The notes below the pieces were generated by a model. The model did no database searches. It was not told the DNA's origin and was given only the letters and a program-made list of their open reading frames with translations. Below are positions 5,156 through 27,725 of a DNA stretch of 36,402 bases, one piece after another (within the stretch, counting starts at the first letter, position 1; each line of letters opens with the position of its first letter). Position numbers and translations under genes: made by a program. Source of the DNA: a virus (Duplodnaviria; Caudoviricetes); IMG/VR virus record IMGVR_UViG_3300031949_000108, positions 1 through 36,402 of that record; one strand, 5' to 3'.

Positions 5156-5704
5156 CTACCGGCGTTGACCTGTGGTAGGCTTACCAAAAGGGCCACCACT
5201 TGCCCATGAAATGGGGTTGAAGAAACCTGGAACACCTGCTGACGTACCTTGCCCTGGCGGCCCATATCTCTGGAGAATACTACCTGGTATTGGCGCTGCT
5301 GGCGTTTTGTCAAGTAGCTTTCCACCTGGCGCTGGAGGCGCGTTGGGGACGATGTCGGGCTGTTGTAACATTCCGCCACTAGGAGGAGGAGGGGGAGCTA
5401 TATCTAGCTGGCGAGTTGTATCAATCGGGCGCCCTCCAATAGGTAAAGGTTGTAGCGTAGGACCAGGCTGAGGCTGGCCAGTAATGCCACCTGGCCCCGG
5501 AGGCCGGTCGTATGGTAGCGCACCTGGTCTTGGCTTAGGCGGTGGGACATAATCGGGGCCGCCACCACTAGGCCTAGGGGGAATAAAGGGCTTGGGGCGC
5601 CCTGATGTACCAGTAGGGGTAGCTCCAAACACGTTACGAAGGCTTTGGCCTACCTGTCCGCCACCTGACGTTGACTGTATACCTACTCTACTTGATGTTG
5701 CCAT
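5156..5704 (-). CDS. Pro/Gly-rich low-complexity protein, possibly an internal virion protein
   Basis: 182 aa, AAGGAG SD upstream, in the tail operon next to an ejection-like protein. Confidence 0.6.
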   Translation of the reverse strand: MATSSRVGIQSTSGGGQVGQSLRNVFGATPTGTSGRPKPFIPPRPSGGGPDYVPPPKPRPGALPYDRPPGPGGITGQPQPGPTLQPLPIGGRPIDTTRQLDIAPPPPPSGGMLQQPDIVPNAPPAPGGKLLDKTPAAPIPGSILQRYGPPGQGTSAGVPGFFNPISWASGGPFGKPTTGQRR

Positions 5705-5717
5705 TAGCTAGTCTCCT

Positions 5718-6662
5718 TTAGCCTATCCCAGGTGGGTTGTACCTATTGCGCTCGATAGCCTCTTGAGAGCCGGGCTCTGGCGCCCTAGAAGCCTGGGTAA
5801 CGTTGAACTGACGAGCTTCCTCAGCTAATCTTGCCATCTGCGCTACGAAGCTCATCTGAACAGACTCCGACATTTGCTGATAGCGTGCAGCGTCGATTCG
5901 CTGGCTCTGGAACTGGGAGTCTAGCTCGGCTTGCAAGCGCTGGGCCTCAGACTTAGCTCCAGCGTAGGCTTGGTGCGCTTGTGTAGCTAAGCCCATGTGC
6001 TCAAGTTGCATCATAGCTTGCTGCGTGTGGTACTGGGCGGTGCGGTCGGCGTTAGCCATGTTTTCTTGCACATTTGCACGATTATACTCGGTGATAAGCT
6101 GAGTAGCCGCGCCCTTAGCTATACCGTAGCCTTCTAGGGCCTGTTCTCTAATTGCGGAGCTAGCACTGAAGCCAGCCTGAGCTACAGCCTTCATACGCTC
6201 GCTTTCAGCTTGCTTAGCCCTAGCGTTGAAGCCGCCAGTGTAACCTGCTCTAGAAGCGGCTTCGGAGCCCATACGCCGCTGCTCTCCTACCGCAGCAGCG
6301 GTCGTCTCACCGGCCAGGGACATAATGTCCTTAAAGCCTTGACTTTCAGTAGGGGCGTTGTACTCCCCGCGAAAGCGGTTGACATCAGCGCCTGCCTCGT
6401 CAATACCTTCGCGGCTAGCGGCATAAGTCTGCGGAGGAGGTGCTATCGTAGGGGCCGGGCCTAGGCCACCGAGGTAGTCACCTAGGCTAGGCATTCCTAC
6501 CTTAGAGCGCTGAGGCGTAGCCCCGCCCTCGAAGGCGCCTCCTCGGGTGAGGTTACTAAGGCTCCCGCCAGGCGCGAAAAGGTTAGCGTTTTTACGGATT
6601 TGCTCTGCCTCGGGGCTAGGGCCTCTAGGCGTAGTTGGGACTCTAAATCCAGGTACAGGCAT
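5718..6662 (-). CDS. Putative internal virion/DNA ejection protein
   Basis: 314 aa, Ala/Gln/Gly-rich and helical-looking; lies downstream of the nozzle genes, as ejection genes do in podoviruses. Confidence 0.55.
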   Translation of the reverse strand: MPVPGFRVPTTPRGPSPEAEQIRKNANLFAPGGSLSNLTRGGAFEGGATPQRSKVGMPSLGDYLGGLGPAPTIAPPPQTYAASREGIDEAGADVNRFRGEYNAPTESQGFKDIMSLAGETTAAAVGEQRRMGSEAASRAGYTGGFNARAKQAESERMKAVAQAGFSASSAIREQALEGYGIAKGAATQLITEYNRANVQENMANADRTAQYHTQQAMMQLEHMGLATQAHQAYAGAKSEAQRLQAELDSQFQSQRIDAARYQQMSESVQMSFVAQMARLAEEARQFNVTQASRAPEPGSQEAIERNRYNPPGIG

Positions 6663-6665
6663 CTT

Positions 6666-7109
6666 TTACCCCCTACTCTTATACACTACAATTAAAGCAT
6701 CTGCTACCACTGGTGCTGATCCTACCACAATAGTGCTAGGGTTGTCAAAGCTAAAAAAGTACCCTTCTACAGGCGGGGGATTGTTTGAGCTACGCTCTAA
6801 TACTATGGTCCTATTACCAGCTGTATCTCCCCATATAACACATACTTGCTGCCCTGCAACCTCGCCGCTGAGGCCAAAAGTCTTGTTGCCGCCGTCGAAG
6901 ACACCTATTGGAGGGGGGTTGTCAATAGTAAGAACGTCGGCGTCTTGGCGTGGAGTGCCCGCGTTAATAAGCTTTTTGGCAGCGAAGGACAAGGCCCTAG
7001 TGTTACCACCGTAGCGTCGGCGCTCCTCGCTAAGGTCAATACCTTGCTCTTTTGCACGAACGAAGACCTTGTTGTGACGTGCTCTTACTATCTCTCTGCT
7101 AGTAGTCAT
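6666..7109 (-). CDS. Small tail/virion protein
   Basis: 147 aa, ATGA-coupled to the upstream gene; GVFDGGNKTFGLS...GSAPVVADALIVVY resembles small beta domains of phage tail proteins. Confidence 0.55.
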   Translation of the reverse strand: MTTSREIVRARHNKVFVRAKEQGIDLSEERRRYGGNTRALSFAAKKLINAGTPRQDADVLTIDNPPPIGVFDGGNKTFGLSGEVAGQQVCVIWGDTAGNRTIVLERSSNNPPPVEGYFFSFDNPSTIVVGSAPVVADALIVVYKSRG

Positions 7110-7786
7110 TGTGCTTTCTTACTCTGGGCTAAGCGCCTACCAAGCGACTGCCAGATAGCTTCCCAGTGCTCTATGTGGATAGGCTCGTTAGCAGCATGTT
7201 CAAGGCGGACAATAAAGGAGCGGCCTTTGACGTTGACTCGGGCGCGCATGCGCCTTGAGCCGGCTCTAGTCACGATTACGTAAGTGCCATCTTCGTTTTC
7301 CCACTCACCGACGCTTATACGCCACTTGGAGAGAGTAGATTGTGAGGCATCCCTAAGCGAGAACTGGAACTCCAAAAAGCGCTTCAAGTCTTTTAGGTCA
7401 TACTCTGCTTTACCTGTACTCTCCTCGTTAAAGGGAATGGGGCCTATTGTAATCATGCGGTAGATTGGGACGTAGGCGTTGTGCAGCCACTCGTCTCGAT
7501 AAGCCTTGGGGTCAAGGTAGTATACACGGTCTACAATAGCGCAGCAAATCAGGTCATCGCCATTATCATCATCGGTCTGTGTAACGAAGGTGGAGGGAAT
7601 ATCACCAAGGGACCACGCTCCGTGCTGGTTACCAAGCTCCTCATCACCGGGGAGAGGGGAAAGGTCCATGGAGTAAATGAAGTTAGCCCAGCGGTCAGCT
7701 ATAGCATCAGGGTTAGCACGCTTAGGCCGCTTTGGGATAATGGGCGGCTGGTCTTCGTAGAAGTCTTCGCAGGGTATAAGGTTCAT
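7106..7786 (-). CDS. C-terminal part of a tail nozzle/stabilisation protein (P22 gp10 / T7 gp12-like); start uncertain (ATG 7786, or entry by frameshift)
   Basis: FIYSMDLS...GAWSLGD...DRVYYLD...KRFLEFQF...RVNVKGRSFIVRLEH resembles the last propeller blades and C-terminal sandwich of nozzle proteins. No SD before the ATG. Confidence 0.55.
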   Translation of the reverse strand: MNLIPCEDFYEDQPPIIPKRPKRANPDAIADRWANFIYSMDLSPLPGDEELGNQHGAWSLGDIPSTFVTQTDDDNGDDLICCAIVDRVYYLDPKAYRDEWLHNAYVPIYRMITIGPIPFNEESTGKAEYDLKDLKRFLEFQFSLRDASQSTLSKWRISVGEWENEDGTYVIVTRAGSRRMRARVNVKGRSFIVRLEHAANEPIHIEHWEAIWQSLGRRLAQSKKAQ

Positions 7787-7817
7787 GGTTATATCACAAT
7801 TATTAGTTAGTCGTAAA

Positions 7818-9782
7818 TTAAACTGGGCACTTGTCAAGAAGACTAGGAGATACACTACATATGTATGTAACACCACATGCTGGATTGGCTGCTATTGCCA
7901 TAGCTACATAGTCACTAACTGACTGGGGTACTACAACAGCAGTTCCAAAGTTAGAGATACCTCCAACGCCTCTCTGTAATAAAAGATTGAAGTACCAAAA
8001 GTAAGGGAATGTCTGATAGTAATAACGTGGTGTTATAGGAAACGAGCAAGTACCCTGTAAAATAAACCTTCTCGACGCATCCCAATAAACGTCGTAAGGC
8101 CATAATGAAACCTTCTTTGTACCACCAACCGCACCTACCTGGTCAAAAACCCAGTGTGTTCCTGGGGCACTAGCTGGAGTACCAAATGTCGTATTCACAG
8201 TATCAAGTGCCCACCTGCCGTTAATAATAGCTGGCCCTAAACCGCTGATGCTTGTAAGCGTGGTTGTTTGTGGAGTTGATATGAAGTATCCGCCAGGTGG
8301 GAACCCGGCTATTGCACGAATACCAAGCTTAAGCCCCGCAACTACATCTGTTACAGGAAGCTCAAGGCGTGTAACGTCAACAAAGTTCTTGCCAACGCCC
8401 GCACGCCCTTCTCCGCCCATGTTTATTACTTGCTTACCGTCACTCACCCATCCAATTTGTATTTCTGCACTGAAAGACTCGATATTTGTCTCGAACCATG
8501 CTTGATCCTCAGAGTTGTAGAATACAAATAGTGGAAGCTCTAAGGTTTGTTGCTCCGGCCCGCCGCCACCGCCACCATCAATTGGGATAATAGGAACACA
8601 GTCCGGATCTTGTGGGTCGCAGTCTGGCTCTAAGGTAATAGGGTCAATGTACTCCTCTATTGGCTCGGGCTTAGGGTCGATCTCAGTAGGATCGTCAGGG
8701 GGAAAGCCGTCAGCGCATAGAGTAGGAAGGTCAGATATTTCGATCAGCTCCTCAAAGTAGGCTAGCTGCTCAGCTGTGAGAAGGAGCTTATAAGCCGCGA
8801 CGGCCTCGGGGTCACAAAGGTCGATAGGAGGAAGGTCAGGCGGTACGGGCGGGTCCGGGGGTTCGTCGCAGAAGACTTCTAGGTCGAGTGAGTTGTAAAA
8901 GGAGTCGAAGTAAGCAAGGAGAACTAGTGCTGCCGGAACTGTTACGCCAAGAGCTATAAGTGTGGCACGATAGGCGGCTACAGCGGACTCATCACATATA
9001 TCAGGAAACTCAGGGTATTCAAATGTGACGCATAGGGCGTTGAGGTCAATTGCAGCGTAGTAAGCATCAAATTCGTCTAGGGAAACGTCGAAGCCAAGCT
9101 CCGGAAACTCATCGTCCAAGTCTATCAGCTTCTGCCGGTACTCAGCTACCTCTTCTGGAACACAGAGGTCAGGAAAGTCTGGGAGCTTCGGCCAATCAAA
9201 CGGAGGGAGGCAGTCATCAACTTCAGGATCGTCACCCTCCTCGTCACAAAGGTCTGTGAACTCAATTGGCGTGTCACAGCGTCCGAAAAGGTGAATGGCT
9301 AAGAAACGTGGGGAGAGAGTAGCGCTGTTAGTAGGATTATGTGTAATCCACACCATGTCAACGCCCGTTCGCTCAAGGGCTAAGCTCAAGTCAAACATCT
9401 TGGTAAGACCGGACGGTACACCGACGAATGCGTTACTTAGGTCAATCCGGCGTCTAAGTGTCCATTCTCCTGAGTCGGTATCACGAGTCCACATTTCCAG
9501 GAGTGGTTGCTCGCCGACTCCGTAGAAGGGGCGTAGCTTTACCTTAGCTCCCCAGAAGTATTCGGGGCGGCGTTGGAAGGTTATTAGACAACCAAGATGG
9601 ACAGACTCTGTTACTAAGTCAAGTGGTGTAGAAAAGGGGAGGCCCGTAGCAGCTATATCTTCATCTGTTCCCCAAGACGAGGGGCTATCACCTGGTAGGT
9701 CTTCATCATAGGTCTCAGTGGCCTCTATAGTATAGTTTATAACAGTGTCGGTTCCTACCCGACGTATGCGGCCCTGACCCAT
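7818..9782 (-). CDS. 654-aa acidic tail-associated protein with three Cys-flanked helical repeats
   Basis: TAATG-coupled to the upstream gene; the central region has PDLC.PE.VA.Y...L....F..Y...DL..LC three times, with Pro/Asp/Glu-rich linkers. Confidence 0.7.
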   Translation of the reverse strand: MGQGRIRRVGTDTVINYTIEATETYDEDLPGDSPSSWGTDEDIAATGLPFSTPLDLVTESVHLGCLITFQRRPEYFWGAKVKLRPFYGVGEQPLLEMWTRDTDSGEWTLRRRIDLSNAFVGVPSGLTKMFDLSLALERTGVDMVWITHNPTNSATLSPRFLAIHLFGRCDTPIEFTDLCDEEGDDPEVDDCLPPFDWPKLPDFPDLCVPEEVAEYRQKLIDLDDEFPELGFDVSLDEFDAYYAAIDLNALCVTFEYPEFPDICDESAVAAYRATLIALGVTVPAALVLLAYFDSFYNSLDLEVFCDEPPDPPVPPDLPPIDLCDPEAVAAYKLLLTAEQLAYFEELIEISDLPTLCADGFPPDDPTEIDPKPEPIEEYIDPITLEPDCDPQDPDCVPIIPIDGGGGGGPEQQTLELPLFVFYNSEDQAWFETNIESFSAEIQIGWVSDGKQVINMGGEGRAGVGKNFVDVTRLELPVTDVVAGLKLGIRAIAGFPPGGYFISTPQTTTLTSISGLGPAIINGRWALDTVNTTFGTPASAPGTHWVFDQVGAVGGTKKVSLWPYDVYWDASRRFILQGTCSFPITPRYYYQTFPYFWYFNLLLQRGVGGISNFGTAVVVPQSVSDYVAMAIAANPACGVTYICSVSPSLLDKCPV

Positions 9783-22325: not shown

Positions 22326-22469
22326 AATTTACAATTTTTAGCTAGTTTAGCGATGAAACCAAAAATTGAGTGAGCTATTTGGGAGGGTGTATATATATAG
22401 AGGCCAGGAGTCCCGTAAGGGGGTCACTGGCATGCGCGCGTGCGTGTGTGTGCGCCCGCGTGCGCGCGA

Positions 22470-22485
22470 TGCAAGCCGCATGCCA
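22470..22485 (-). promoter_or_regulatory. Sigma54 (-24/-12) consensus, leftward
   Basis: Minus strand reads TGGCAT-GCGGC-TTGCA. Confidence 0.6.
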
Positions 22486-22491
22486 CTCGGT

Positions 22492-22507
22492 TGGCACCGC
22501 GCTTGCT
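22492..22507 (+). promoter_or_regulatory. Sigma54 (-24/-12) consensus, rightward
   Basis: TGGCAC-CGCGC-TTGCT, an exact TGGCAC-N5-TTGCW match. Confidence 0.65.
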
Positions 22508-22729
22508 AATCCATAAATCGTACCGCGCCTATGCACGGCTGCTGTGCGCATTGCTGTGCGCTTTGCAATGTGTTGCAAAATTGCCATACGACAAACTTGT
22601 GCCATGCCCGCTTTCCCCAGCAAATCCGCGTACTTGGCCTCGATGCTGTGCGCTTTGCGCGACGAACTCGTGCCAGCCTGCGGGGTGTGGCATTTGGCGA
22701 CAACGCAGCAATTTCGCGCACTTAGCGCC

Positions 22730-22745
22730 TGGCACGCCGATCGCA
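22730..22745 (+). promoter_or_regulatory. Sigma54-like promoter before the first early gene
   Basis: TGGCAC-GCCGA-TCGCA; one mismatch, with GG-N10-GC intact. Confidence 0.55.
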
Positions 22746-22863
22746 TCTGATCGGGCTCGGCGGCGGCCATGCCTGAATAAGTATGGCATGACGCCCACGC
22801 TCTTTGGGACATAGAGAACATCTGGCGGCGTGTTATGCGAGACACGCAAAAGCGGAGGTTAGT

Positions 22864-23601: not shown

Positions 23602-24075
23602 ATGACTAACACTGCACAAGCTATAGTGCAGCGTAGGCGTCTGCGCGGGAACATGACAAGATACATAGCAGATAGAGAAATGACCCTGGGCAGGTGTGAA
23701 GCGACGCCGAGCGTGGCGCCAGACTGGCCGCAGAACGAACGCAGCGGGCTCATGGCGCGCGTGTCCGTCCTGGCGCAGGCCAAGCCCTATGCCGCAGCTG
23801 AAAACGCCGCAAATGGCGATTGTGAGCGATTAAAGGCCAAAAACGCAGATGCTATGTCGGATGATATGGAGACTACAGCACTAAACGTGCGGTACATACG
23901 CCACTGCGGTATGATAGAAACAGCGGAAGGAAAAGCTAGATTGTGGCATATGGCTATGGCGCGTGGCCTGTACTCTATCCTAGTCGAGCGTGCCTTAGCT
24001 GGTGATGACAAAGCAGCGTATGGCGCGCCACACTGGCTATTGTACAGCAACGAACAAATGAAGCAAATGGCGTAA
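23602..24075 (+). CDS. Hypothetical protein (true start may be internal)
   Basis: 157-aa ORF, TAATG-coupled to the kinase-like gene; no clear SD at the first ATG. Confidence 0.5.
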   Translation: MTNTAQAIVQRRRLRGNMTRYIADREMTLGRCEATPSVAPDWPQNERSGLMARVSVLAQAKPYAAAENAANGDCERLKAKNADAMSDDMETTALNVRYIRHCGMIETAEGKARLWHMAMARGLYSILVERALAGDDKAAYGAPHWLLYSNEQMKQMA

Positions 24076-26393
24076 TGGACTATATGGAAGACTCTAAAAG
24101 AGTACCAAAGCTGCCGCTAAAACCTAACCGGCGCGTCATTCCTGACAAAATACGATTGTCAGAACTAAGAACGCAAAAAGCGAAAGGTATAGTCGTACTA
24201 TACCGGTGTAAGAACGTGTTTGGCACCGCCCAGCCTTTCTCAGCTATTGTACAATCGCAACGCTTAATACAATCGGCTATAGCACACTTATCACAAGAAG
24301 GCGTGCCTCTATCAGAAGAGCTAATCGCAAGGCCATGTCCAGTAAGGCCTAGGCATGGCTTCGTCGATTCAAGGCCGGTCAAAACATACGAAGAAGTCCT
24401 CAGTACCTGGAAAGAAACGAAGCAGCATGACCCGCAAGGCGAATTAGTATTGCAACCGTTAATACAAGCTGATGCTAGTGCGGTACTAACACCTACTGCA
24501 CTAGGCATCGGTCCTGGTAGGGAAGGTGCTACTAGCGGAACTAAAGCTTGGACAATTTCCCTACCCGCGCCAAAGCCAGCTAGTTACTCATACCTAGATA
24601 ATTTCGGTGGTCATGTACAAAGCCGGGATGCTTTGCCCACTCATTTGCTAGAATGCGCGGGTATACCAGAACACGAAGCCCCTTATATGGAATTTGTAAG
24701 AGACTTCAATAATATGCAATGGCTTGTCCAGCTACGAGCGGGGCCACGTACTAGCGGAAAGTCTGATATAATTCCCTACGATAACTATAAGGTAACTAAA
24801 GTACGTAGTATAACAAGCCATAGCACCTCACTTATAGAGTGGGAGAACGAAACCGCAACGCTGCCAAAAGGTACGGCTGTATATCACGCAGGCGGTACAG
24901 TAGTGTCTCATTTTGCCATGCACTGTTTAGCTAACAACATAGCATACATTACTTCACATATACCACACGTTGGTGAAGTGTTACATACTACAGAAGCGCT
25001 CACTACGGATGGTATAGCTGAGTGTTCAGACGCGATGCGGCAAGGTGTCTTACGCGGTTTTAACACTAGCGATTGGTATGGCCCAATAAACGAAGTAACA
25101 GAGTTTTGGAAGGAATGGACGGCCAGTAGGCGTCTACATTCAACCTTGGCATTTGCCCTATTTGGTATACACAATTATGGAGCCGACCACGGGACAATTG
25201 GAAGCTACATAACTGGCGCAGCATGCGCTAACCTATGGCGCTTATTGGCAATCGTATGTTGTGGGGAGTATAGGCATAGTTCCTACTATGAGGGTATAAA
25301 CATACATAGAGGCAGGGAAATGAGCGAGATAACAGGTAGGGATAAAGTTTTTGCATACTTGTGGTACTTACCGCCAGAGCTGCTAAATGAGATACTGACT
25401 AAGGCAGCATATTCGTTTCTTAACAATGTATGGCATCGTAGTTATGGCGGGCTACAGTGGGGTCATTGTGCTTATTCGGCATTACGATTAGGTAATGCGC
25501 TAGCGAGGTTTTATACAAAGCCTACGCCTCATAATAAAAGGCGCCTGCTACAAGTGGCCCACTATACGGTAAATATAGTGCATAATAACGGCTGGGTTTT
25601 TAATAAGTTTGCAGACGGGAATCTAGCAGATAAGGCCGCAAATGCTAGTAGGCTATTTCTAGTAAATCATGTACTATCTCCGTTACAAGAGCTACAGCGT
25701 CTTAGTACAAAACCACTGGAAGTGTTGAAATTCACAGATGCTAGGGATATAGTAGGCTGGCGCAGTGACATTACATACCAGTTAAGAAAGAGGGCACGTG
25801 GGAAATGGACTTTGAAGCCTTGGCTAGAGTATACCGCTGAGGTTGGCAACTTAGCCATGGCGCTGGGATACGGCTTGGCCTACAGGCCCAAAGGTACGAT
25901 AGCAAAAGCTTCAGAAGAAGCTAACAAAGTATCATTCATCCACTATACAGCTAATAAGTCTGAGTTAGAGTTACCAACTGAGCTAACGTTCCTGCAATGC
26001 TGTATACGCGCTCCTGGCCTTATACATTTCCAGGCCAAGTTTAAACCCGGATGCCTTGATACCAAACAGCCTAGCTCATGTTACTACAAATTCAGTGTAG
26101 ATTATAACAACGTGTTTACGTCTTGCGACTTGACGCACGCTAACTTTAGGCAGCTAGTTGAAGCTAAATGCAAAGACGAGTTGTATAGCGCTCATAGCTA
26201 TGCTGGCACACTAACACGATACTGGGTTTTTAGGTACGACGATTCGATAAGCGTAAAAGTAGATATGAGCACACTTCCTAAGTGTATAGAGATATACTTA
26301 GCTCTTTCAGACCCGCTCGTTCCCGCTGCGCCGTGGGAACTTATCGGCTACCGGATACCAAAGGAGGAACTAATCTATGTCAAGCAAGCGTAA
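24075..26393 (+). CDS. PEP-synthase/PPDK-superfamily phosphotransferase: ATP-grasp, swivelling phospho-His domain and an unrecognised C-terminal region
   Basis: QKAKGIVVL, LVLQPLIQADASAV and MEFVRD...WLVQLRAGP parallel the PEPS ATP-grasp motifs (GGKA..L, VVQ.MV....SGV, IEWA....YILQARP). GGTVVSHFAMHCLANNIAYI parallels GG.TSHAAI.ARE.GIP.V (His279). Confidence 0.75.
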   Translation: MDYMEDSKRVPKLPLKPNRRVIPDKIRLSELRTQKAKGIVVLYRCKNVFGTAQPFSAIVQSQRLIQSAIAHLSQEGVPLSEELIARPCPVRPRHGFVDSRPVKTYEEVLSTWKETKQHDPQGELVLQPLIQADASAVLTPTALGIGPGREGATSGTKAWTISLPAPKPASYSYLDNFGGHVQSRDALPTHLLECAGIPEHEAPYMEFVRDFNNMQWLVQLRAGPRTSGKSDIIPYDNYKVTKVRSITSHSTSLIEWENETATLPKGTAVYHAGGTVVSHFAMHCLANNIAYITSHIPHVGEVLHTTEALTTDGIAECSDAMRQGVLRGFNTSDWYGPINEVTEFWKEWTASRRLHSTLAFALFGIHNYGADHGTIGSYITGAACANLWRLLAIVCCGEYRHSSYYEGINIHRGREMSEITGRDKVFAYLWYLPPELLNEILTKAAYSFLNNVWHRSYGGLQWGHCAYSALRLGNALARFYTKPTPHNKRRLLQVAHYTVNIVHNNGWVFNKFADGNLADKAANASRLFLVNHVLSPLQELQRLSTKPLEVLKFTDARDIVGWRSDITYQLRKRARGKWTLKPWLEYTAEVGNLAMALGYGLAYRPKGTIAKASEEANKVSFIHYTANKSELELPTELTFLQCCIRAPGLIHFQAKFKPGCLDTKQPSSCYYKFSVDYNNVFTSCDLTHANFRQLVEAKCKDELYSAHSYAGTLTRYWVFRYDDSISVKVDMSTLPKCIEIYLALSDPLVPAAPWELIGYRIPKEELIYVKQA

Positions 26394-27126
26394 TAAAAGC
26401 AGATACCTACCAGGTTGTGAGAGCAGGTATAATGATATACTAAACGATGACGAGTATGACTTTGTAAGTGGTAAGTATAAGCCCGATGAGCTAGCACACG
26501 CACGAGCGTATAACCCAGTTAGTCAAACTGGTTTTGTGCCAGGCACAGCTGCTATACCTTACAAAAGGTGTAGCCACGACGGACAATCTAAACCAATTAT
26601 CATAGGCAATGTAAGAGTCACGGGCGCAACAGGTAGTTGCCTAGATATGTTTGCTGGTCTAAACATAGTTATCGATGCAGGCGGAAGTGTATCGATGACC
26701 AAACGGCCATTCATAAAAAGCGGCCCAGCTAATATCACTAAGCTTGAACTTCCTGGCCTGCAACCTTGTCCAGTTGTTAGATTAGACTGGCCAGATCGTC
26801 AAGCCCCGCCAGTCCCTGCTTCTTGGTGGACATCGTTACTAAAAACTTTAGATGCCAGCTATTCGCGCGTCGTGTGCGCGTGTATCGGTGGTCATGGCAG
26901 GACGGGTACTATGTTAGCTGCCTTGCTGCTAGCTGGATGTAATGAGCTAACCCCTGAAGACGCAGTGGCTTTAGTAAAAGAGATACACTGTGATAAAGCT
27001 GTGGAAGCTAGCTCACAATTTCGGTATCTTGCGACGCTAAGACCAGAGTGGACTCCAACCAAAGCATACAAGCAGAACATGGAGGAAACAAGCCAATGGT
27101 ACAACCGTGAATTAGCTACGGGATGA
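26377..27126 (+). CDS. Cys-dependent (CX5R) PTP/dual-specificity-type phosphatase
   Basis: LDWPDRQAP (WPD loop), CIGGHGRTGT (Cys169, P-loop), AVEASSQ. Confidence 0.88.
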   Translation: MSSKRNKSRYLPGCESRYNDILNDDEYDFVSGKYKPDELAHARAYNPVSQTGFVPGTAAIPYKRCSHDGQSKPIIIGNVRVTGATGSCLDMFAGLNIVIDAGGSVSMTKRPFIKSGPANITKLELPGLQPCPVVRLDWPDRQAPPVPASWWTSLLKTLDASYSRVVCACIGGHGRTGTMLAALLLAGCNELTPEDAVALVKEIHCDKAVEASSQFRYLATLRPEWTPTKAYKQNMEETSQWYNRELATG

Positions 27127-27188
27127 GGCGGCGAGTAGGTTATGAAAACCGGGCAAATAAGCCCCAAAACAAAGAAGGAGAAACGGTT

Positions 27189-27725
27189 ATGTTGATAAGT
27201 TACATTCAGGCTAGAGTTTTTGCGCCTGGCGTCATAAGGCTCCAAGCGACGGGTCCTGCATTCCCGTTAGGGTATGCATCCGGTAACATTAAGACCGAAT
27301 CGGCCACTATACAAAGGCTTATTCAGGAGCGTTCATTCGTGCCAAGCATGAGAGCTACTACTGGGAAGCTCTACGCTCCGCTTGGAGTCTTGGATAGTGA
27401 CCAAACAATCTGCTTACTTGACCCTGATACTGGGTATGAAGACAGGGTGTTGTTTTCAATGAAAGAGGTTCTTAGTGTACTCAAGGCCCCAGTTCCAGCT
27501 TACGACGCTAGCGATAAGGACCTAGTGGAAGCACACGTCAAGGTGACACTCAATACAGCTAAGGCAGGACCGCTCAAGCCAAACCTGGAAGTGGAAGACA
27601 AGGACCCAGCTGTGTATGATAATGAGGATAATGACAATGATGAGGAAGACCCCGTGTCTATTGCTTTGATGGGCCTTCAGCAAGCAGTTAGCGTACTTGC
27701 GAGTGCTCTTAAGCAGAAGAAGTAA
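27189..27725 (+). CDS. Hypothetical protein, 178 aa; N-terminus resembles the last domain of the swivel kinase; acidic tail
   Basis: AAGGAG SD favours ATG 27189 over the track start 27123. Confidence 0.7.
   Translation: MLISYIQARVFAPGVIRLQATGPAFPLGYASGNIKTESATIQRLIQERSFVPSMRATTGKLYAPLGVLDSDQTICLLDPDTGYEDRVLFSMKEVLSVLKAPVPAYDASDKDLVEAHVKVTLNTAKAGPLKPNLEVEDKDPAVYDNEDNDNDEEDPVSIALMGLQQAVSVLASALKQKK

Follow-up and report, generated by a model that had tools for sequence, protein, structure and literature searches.

In pyruvate phosphate dikinase (PPDK) and phosphoenolpyruvate (PEP) synthase (structures 1dik, 1kbl and 2ols), an ATP-grasp domain is followed by a swivel domain with a catalytic His. 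The same order and catalytic residues are found in a 772-aa protein of the virus record IMGVR_UViG_3300031949_000108, a 36.4-kb record, about 70% complete, which was analysed over its whole length (36,402 nucleotides; the window). In this protein, however, a helical domain of about 220 aa, supplied in trans in some relatives, replaces the TIM barrel, and the gene has a CX5R phosphatase gene as its partner. Rifampin phosphotransferase (RPH; 5hv1-3, 5fbs) is likewise a dikinase with a non-barrel acceptor domain, and an Arg/Glu pair positions its phospho-His; according to the accessible text of PMC4844700 its order is ATP-grasp, rifampin-binding acceptor and C-terminal swivel, whereas the swivel of the window kinase is central. 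RPH differs also in having no described phosphatase partner. To our knowledge, the only swivel dikinase and CX5R phosphatase forming a writer/eraser pair are of the type of glucan water dikinase (GWD) and SEX4. The resemblance lies in a swivel-His dikinase being opposed by CX5R-type phosphatases such as SEX4 and laforin, but the plant and algal enzymes work on starch and combine carbohydrate-binding modules with an ATP-binding domain at the C-terminus (PMC13553574, accessible part), and neither feature is present in the window kinase. The first-pass annotation of this DNA had compared the gene pair with GWD/SEX4 and with the T7 kinase gp0.7, and both comparisons are analogies only. The T7 protein is not known as an ATP-grasp/swivel enzyme, and we know of no cognate phosphatase gene alongside its gene. 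It is similar in being a phage-encoded phosphorylation activity directed against the host, and so possibly a functional analogue (PMC13645617, in part).

Two further groups invite comparison. Small protein tyrosine and dual-specificity phosphatases (SsoPTP 2i6i, 5z59, DUSP23 4erc, KAP 1fpz; Pfam PTP-SAK) share the CX5R loop, the general-acid Asp and the Q loop with the window phosphatase, which differs by belonging to a dedicated CxGGHGRTG clade with a conserved extra Cys and a strict genomic partner. The 'PPDK' genes of cultured phages (Vibrio SIO-2/VHS1/J26-like, Stenotrophomonas DLP3/DLP5, Rhizobium RHph and Rhodobacter RcZahn; phrog_18609 with phrog_20946 and phrog_17568) resemble the window in a barrel-less engine, here meaning the ATP-grasp and swivel part that donates phosphate, a stand-alone helical protein and one or two CX5R phosphatases; their engine comes from a true PPDK, as against the divergent ATP-grasp of the window kinase. 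The module works like a swivel dikinase and yet lacks defining features of PPDK, RPH and GWD alike. No description of it was found in the literature covered, which did not extend to supplements, and the accessible parts of PMC9503650 and PMC12419801 contain nothing on it. None of 8 proteins matched the PADLOC 2023 profiles, although absence from that library excludes nothing. What is new is that the invariant core of the module consists of the helical domain and the phosphatase, with an exchangeable phosphate-donor engine. Its parts in the window are as follows.

24075..26393, + strand: fused dikinase-type phosphotransferase of 772 aa (engine, helical acceptor domain and variable tail).
24132..24761, + strand: ATP-grasp nucleotide-binding domain, aa ~20-229, with K35, R86, E206, Q219 and R221 and a family-specific RPCPxxPRHGF loop.
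24762..24992, + strand: swivel phosphohistidine domain, aa ~230-306, placed by structure alignment and profile; His279 codon at 24909-24911.
24996..25664, + strand: all-helical acceptor domain, aa 308-~530 (stand-alone version, phrog_20946), with the motifs E398-x-R400-H401, G458-G459-x-x-W462 and H503-N504-x-G-x-x-x-[ND]-K511.
25692..26390, + strand: variable tail at the C-terminus (aa ~540-772), in which an HxQ...SxAG element is weakly conserved.
26377..27126, + strand: CX5R phosphatase of the dedicated clade (phrog_17568), with W-x-D140, C169-x-G-G-H-G-R175-T-G, C205, E210 and Q214.

The 772-aa protein has 953 relatives at E<=1e-3 among clusters at 50% identity, and no match in Pfam, PHROG, NCBIfam or PADLOC; the fused form also lacks a sequence match to Pfam PPDK_N. 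All five nucleotide-site residues of PPDK type (Lys, Arg, Glu, Gln, Arg) are present, their equivalence being taken from motif positions in host PPDKs. The closest structural match of the ATP-grasp domain is RPH. The central swivel domain aligns structurally to 1dik and 5hv2/5hv3 up to residue 306, and H279 is conserved in 150/150 aligned relatives, while profile alignment pairs SHFA with the TSHAA of host PPDK weakly (prob 5%). The C-terminal core is all-helical in the predicted model (pLDDT 87). Occupancy of the tail in the alignment is low, and some relatives do without it; a tail profile matches 91 of 197 tails (window tail, E 3.4e-7). In the phosphatase, C169 and R175 of the P-loop C-x5-R-[ST], the general-acid D140 and the Q-loop Q214 are all found in 40/40 sequences, and the start codon is preceded by GGAGG. 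Its profile matches 277 Protein Data Bank sequences, the closest small solved relatives being protein phosphatases (SsoPTP, archaeal-type PTP 5z59, DUSP23, KAP and Cdc14). The basic observation of the first-pass annotation, an ATP-grasp and swivel engine with a non-barrel C-terminal region and an overlapping CX5R phosphatase, is confirmed. Of the four findings that it named as fatal to itself (no ATP-grasp fold, His279 unconserved, an ordinary barrel, a phosphatase rarely adjacent), none was made.

When the window phosphatase alone was used as query, a relative was found in 44 of 45 viral kinase loci, and the 45th ends inside the kinase gene. Where 800 nt or more lie downstream, a profile built from 40 of these viral-locus relatives detected the phosphatase in 44/44 viral, 4/4 genome and 50/51 metagenome loci; dropping this filter gives 54/79 for the metagenomes. 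The metagenome loci were the best 80 of 202 matches, one of them the window's own record. At 60% identity the phosphatase is present in 75 of 76 groups, nearly always as the very next gene and frequently overlapping. The commonest other neighbour reaches 11 of 98 groups at most, and no conserved pathway gene lies nearby. The association, which had been noticed in a single locus, is therefore near-obligate. Distances between helical domains correlate with those between phosphatases (118 pairs, rho 0.25 against a permutation maximum of 0.08); this demonstrates joint inheritance and not co-evolution.

The reverse search, in which the phosphatase profile was run and the best 80 of 332 viral stretches were taken (weaker ones, possibly including orphans, lie outside this sample), gave 52 loci on further contigs, some of them near-copies. 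The helical-domain gene was directly upstream in 50 of these, and the remaining two begin at a contig end. Without ATP-grasp or swivel, the helical domain stands alone in 24 of these 50 loci: 14 have a PPDK-derived engine 2-4 genes upstream, one has a swivel-only gene, two are cut upstream and seven have no engine nearby. The phosphatase tracks the helical domain, not the ATP-grasp. The first-pass annotation took the ATP-grasp/swivel kinase for the core and is incomplete in this, as the engine may be separate, swivel-only or undetectable. Stand-alone and fused helical domains are homologous (hhalign 99.0%, E 6.8e-18); across 141 rows of the fused and 16 of the stand-alone form, E398, G458 and G459 do not vary, and R400, W462, H503, N504 and K511 hardly do. 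The phosphate-donor engine is accordingly exchangeable, occurring fused, as a separate PPDK-derived barrel-less protein, as a swivel alone, or undetected. A quick tree of 65 loci, with an unsure root, separates the fused forms (support 93) from the split ones (support 97) and places the engine-less rows in between, a pattern compatible with a swivel donor having been recruited twice.

The split form is found in cultured phages. GenBank has 40 phage records with a stand-alone helical gene (33 from Vibrio, 4 from Stenotrophomonas, 2 from Rhizobium and 1 from Rhodobacter phages), and 39 of these records also contain an engine, the exception being a 5.8-kb fragment; conversely, 39 of 40 proteobacterial records with an engine contain the helical gene (accessions were compared by eye). 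The PPDK-derived engines keep GGKG, SVRSG, DxEFT, LQxR and TSHAA in 15/15, with GGKA in one. RcZahn, DLP5 and RHph_Y1_11 have the engine first, then small genes, phosphatase 1, the helical gene and the CxGGHGRT phosphatase; the last is labelled thymidylate synthase in DLP5, and phrog_17568, which the window phosphatase matches, carries the same label. In J26 the gene after the helical gene, labelled pyruvate decarboxylase, is not a phosphatase. These observations on labels concern phrog_17568, L219:7978-8766 and L218:8016-8870. Split modules have a CsrA-like gene in the interval from engine to phosphatase (L188:3119-3430; L218:5940-6422). Bacillus phage G gp139 (L273:3722-4819) is a 365-aa barrel-less ATP-grasp and swivel protein and perhaps another split dikinase; a helical-domain or phosphatase gene was not among the 10 neighbours tested.

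The swivel and tail of a split engine (aa 375-667) were folded together with the stand-alone helical protein. The score was 0.71, against 0.00 for the best of three controls; the mark for such scores was attained in 116 of 157 cases with solved complexes and in 2 of 215 with mismatched pairs. At least 90% of contacts are shared between runs, and the partner pLDDT is 87 or higher. The predicted interface includes engine His460 and the invariant helical residues Y58, D205 and N213 (F363, H496 and N504 in the window kinase), while His212 (H503) is outside the confidently placed residues. The prediction speaks for the His of the separate swivel docking onto the helical protein, beside the D/N496-N504 face. 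The most confident contacts come from the eroded barrel remnant of the split engine, which may therefore now act as a docking arm.

Our preferred reading, to which we give about an even chance, is that the overlapping genes are a mobile phage cassette, a phosphohistidine-fed writer/eraser switch whose target would be conserved in the host and is most likely a protein. The ATP-grasp domain would load His279 from ATP (ATP -> AMP + Pi, with transfer of the beta-phosphate, by RPH/GWD chemistry), and the swivel would carry the phosphate to the conserved pocket of the helical domain. The latter, probably the specificity and catalytic core and the constant part of the writer, would pass it to a hydroxyl on the target, with E398, R400 and K511 as candidates for the Arg/Glu-type positioning of the hydroxyl by analogy with RPH and GWD, and the phosphatase would take it off again. 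Engine-less versions might borrow phospho-His from host PEP synthase, PPDK or enzyme I. Both enzymes would act on one site, and the purpose may be to take over the host in a timed manner, or to counter its defence with self-protection. That phosphate passes into the helical domain by dikinase-type transfer is very probable, and we lean slightly towards opposition of writer and eraser on one site. As to the target, a protein is a plausible guess, a nucleotide or sugar-phosphate-type small molecule the main rival but a rather doubtful one, and RNA/DNA and any other target are each poor candidates. A protein is put first because the phosphatase has WPD and Q loops and protein phosphatases as its nearest solved relatives, and because a conserved pathway neighbour is absent and both proteins have long variable extensions. 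In a wider wording, with chances a little short of even, the module would be a new class of viral signalling switch, in which the helical phosphotransferase would plug into any swivel donor (a fused engine of its own, a barrel-less PPDK that was captured, or host PEP synthase, PPDK or enzyme I) and, together with the CX5R eraser, reversibly phosphorylate a conserved host target for takeover or the disarming of defence.

Several observations weigh against this reading. The two non-barrel swivel dikinases described phosphorylate small-molecule or glycan hydroxyls, not proteins (PMC4844700 and PMC13553574, accessible parts). Near-invariance of the pocket across phages of very different hosts would fit a universal anionic small substrate equally, as would the P-loop His found in 114 of 119 phosphatases. 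A kinase co-expressed with its own eraser needs control by timing or compartment. One kinase locus, L106, has no phosphatase, and Vibrio phage J26 lacks the CxGGHGRT phosphatase, having just the paralogue, phosphatase 1, which lies upstream. Halves of split genes tend to pass complex prediction, and the pass above supports binding without showing it. Five genomes (99-100% complete) with the helical gene gave no swivel in whole-record searches, and four of them were negative again with unfiltered engine profiles, which matched the swivel-only gene of G009 as control; a more divergent engine may be present, or the helical domain may have an activity independent of the engine.

The leading rival is that some small universal molecule is processed in two steps. 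For a substrate such as a nucleotide defence signal, an NAD/ADP-ribose derivative or a sugar phosphate, the kinase would phosphorylate one hydroxyl and the phosphatase remove the same or another phosphate, so that a host signal is inactivated or rerouted. We consider it unlikely, as no relevant neighbour occurs in more than about one in seven groups, the phosphatase profile is nearest to protein phosphatases, and every structural lead is below the tools' own bars. Structure search (top 50 matches) found no solved relative of the helical domain, nor the RPH acceptor domain; an ESM feature lead to Rph_4th (0.86) was below the bar, and no profile match to one RPH-like protein was obtained. The helical domain could instead be the phospho-acceptor itself, an effector such as a toxin-like enzyme switched at His503 or nearby and reset by the phosphatase, with the engine or the host phospho-His pool as regulator only. 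HEPN nucleases carry an R-x4-6-H catalytic motif in a four-helix bundle, but this motif is absent at the conserved His of the helical domain, His212 (H503) is not among the confident interface residues, and at least two recruitments of engines would be costly for regulating a single site, all of which makes this explanation improbable. An analogue of T4 polynucleotide kinase/phosphatase, serving RNA end-healing or 2'-phosphorylation for tRNA ligation or nuclease shielding, could draw on the RNA ligase gene 5 kb downstream in the window and on Rnl1, RtcB, Ro60, RlaP or cREC adjoining the pair in single loci. Regular co-occurrence with RNA ligases was, however, not found: PF09414 is present in 10/49 module-bearing records (4/29 near-complete ones) and PF09511 in 1/49, counts that exclude RtcB and have four sister records as background, and we hold this function to be quite improbable.

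There remains the published view of the cultured-phage genes, a metabolic PPDK or PEP synthase raising host carbon flux. The split engines are indeed 37-47% identical to host PPDK over the nucleotide-binding and swivel domains, and the accessible text of PMC12038007 and PMC9229204 calls the phage engine a metabolic PPDK auxiliary gene. But the TIGR01828 profile is matched only up to position 510 of 865 and below its cut-off, and a barrel profile from three host PPDK barrels, which detected enzyme I as control at 7e-22, gave no match below E 0.2 in 16 phage engines and the window protein, whose C-terminal core is helical. The barrel being absent by model, structure search and profile, the first-pass claim that this is not a metabolic PPDK is borne out, and a metabolic role is hardly credible. 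It is likely that the 'metabolic PPDK' genes of cultured phages of Vibrio, Stenotrophomonas, Rhizobium and Rhodobacter belong to the same machine in its split form, and the published reading looks wrong. As far as the accessible text goes, the module genes have been treated separately, as metabolic, or mislabelled (PMC12038007, PMC9229204, PMC7326821), the last paper listing them without a link between them.

The module defines a phage enzyme family that is widespread (953 clusters at 50% identity) and unannotated; its acceptor domain is new and its phosphatase partner almost fixed. In this family a dikinase can be split, with the acceptor domain provided in trans or possibly served by enzymes of the host. 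A gene cited in several phage papers as metabolic reprogramming takes on another meaning. If the proposed switch is real, this would be the first protein- or nucleotide-directed dikinase-type kinase in viruses, its phosphate mark would be coupled to the host PEP/ATP state, and the reading as a PPDK auxiliary metabolic gene would be overturned for about 40 cultured phage records. Since the split form exists in cultured phages, including RcZahn, whose host Rhodobacter capsulatus is a harmless laboratory species, the target should be findable by standard genetics, labelling and phosphoproteomics.

In the window the terminase, portal and capsid genes run leftward, and a rightward arm starting at 22.8 kb contains the pair, followed 3' by a PD-(D/E)XK nuclease, a Sak4-like protein, the RNA ligase and a uracil-DNA glycosylase. 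Two further genes flank the pair.

23602..24075, + strand: upstream gene, marker of a variable cargo slot (from comparison with sister phages).
27123..27725, + strand: orphan open reading frame, probable start 27189 (178 aa), outside the kinase-phosphatase module.

The orphan lies inside the range given in the first-pass annotation but does not belong to the module. Three near-complete sister phages (terminase 51-73% identical) have neither the kinase nor the phosphatase gene; in two of them the homologue of the upstream gene is followed by a pair encoding Amidoligase_2 and a class II glutamine amidotransferase (L251:1602-4460, - strand; L255:1174-3484, + strand). That the same slot holds this pair suggests interchangeable two-gene host-modifying cassettes. 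In Acidobacteria genomes and related contigs (L048, L049, L086, L102, L104, L114, L128) the kinase-phosphatase pair lies directly 5' of a PRTRC cassette (Prok-E2_D, ThiF, PRTRC_E/F), and therefore also travels on integrated mobile elements. Multiple copies were seen as two modules per contig, up to three phosphatases per locus, or a second helical gene after the phosphatase (L122; L043/L146; L022/L032; L148:6964-7728).

The commonest other neighbour is a stand-alone RapZ C-terminal domain (11 + 3 of 98 groups), frequently placed immediately 5' of the kinase (among others L002:7409-7828, L043:11088-11543, L052:2396-2830). The L106 kinase (5605-9010) sits among GC-rich host-like genes, and a separate gene for a swivel domain adjoins it on the other strand. 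Many phosphatases have long Cys/His-rich repeats (CxCGH...H...C) in front at the N-terminus (e.g. L004, L009, L021, L038, L039), and Cys exceeds 4% in about 30% of the long N-terminal extensions of the kinases. In the window, the stretch 22375-22800, between the small terminase gene and the rightward arm, is GC-rich and gene-poor with short GCGC/GTGC repeats, and is a possible control or origin region.

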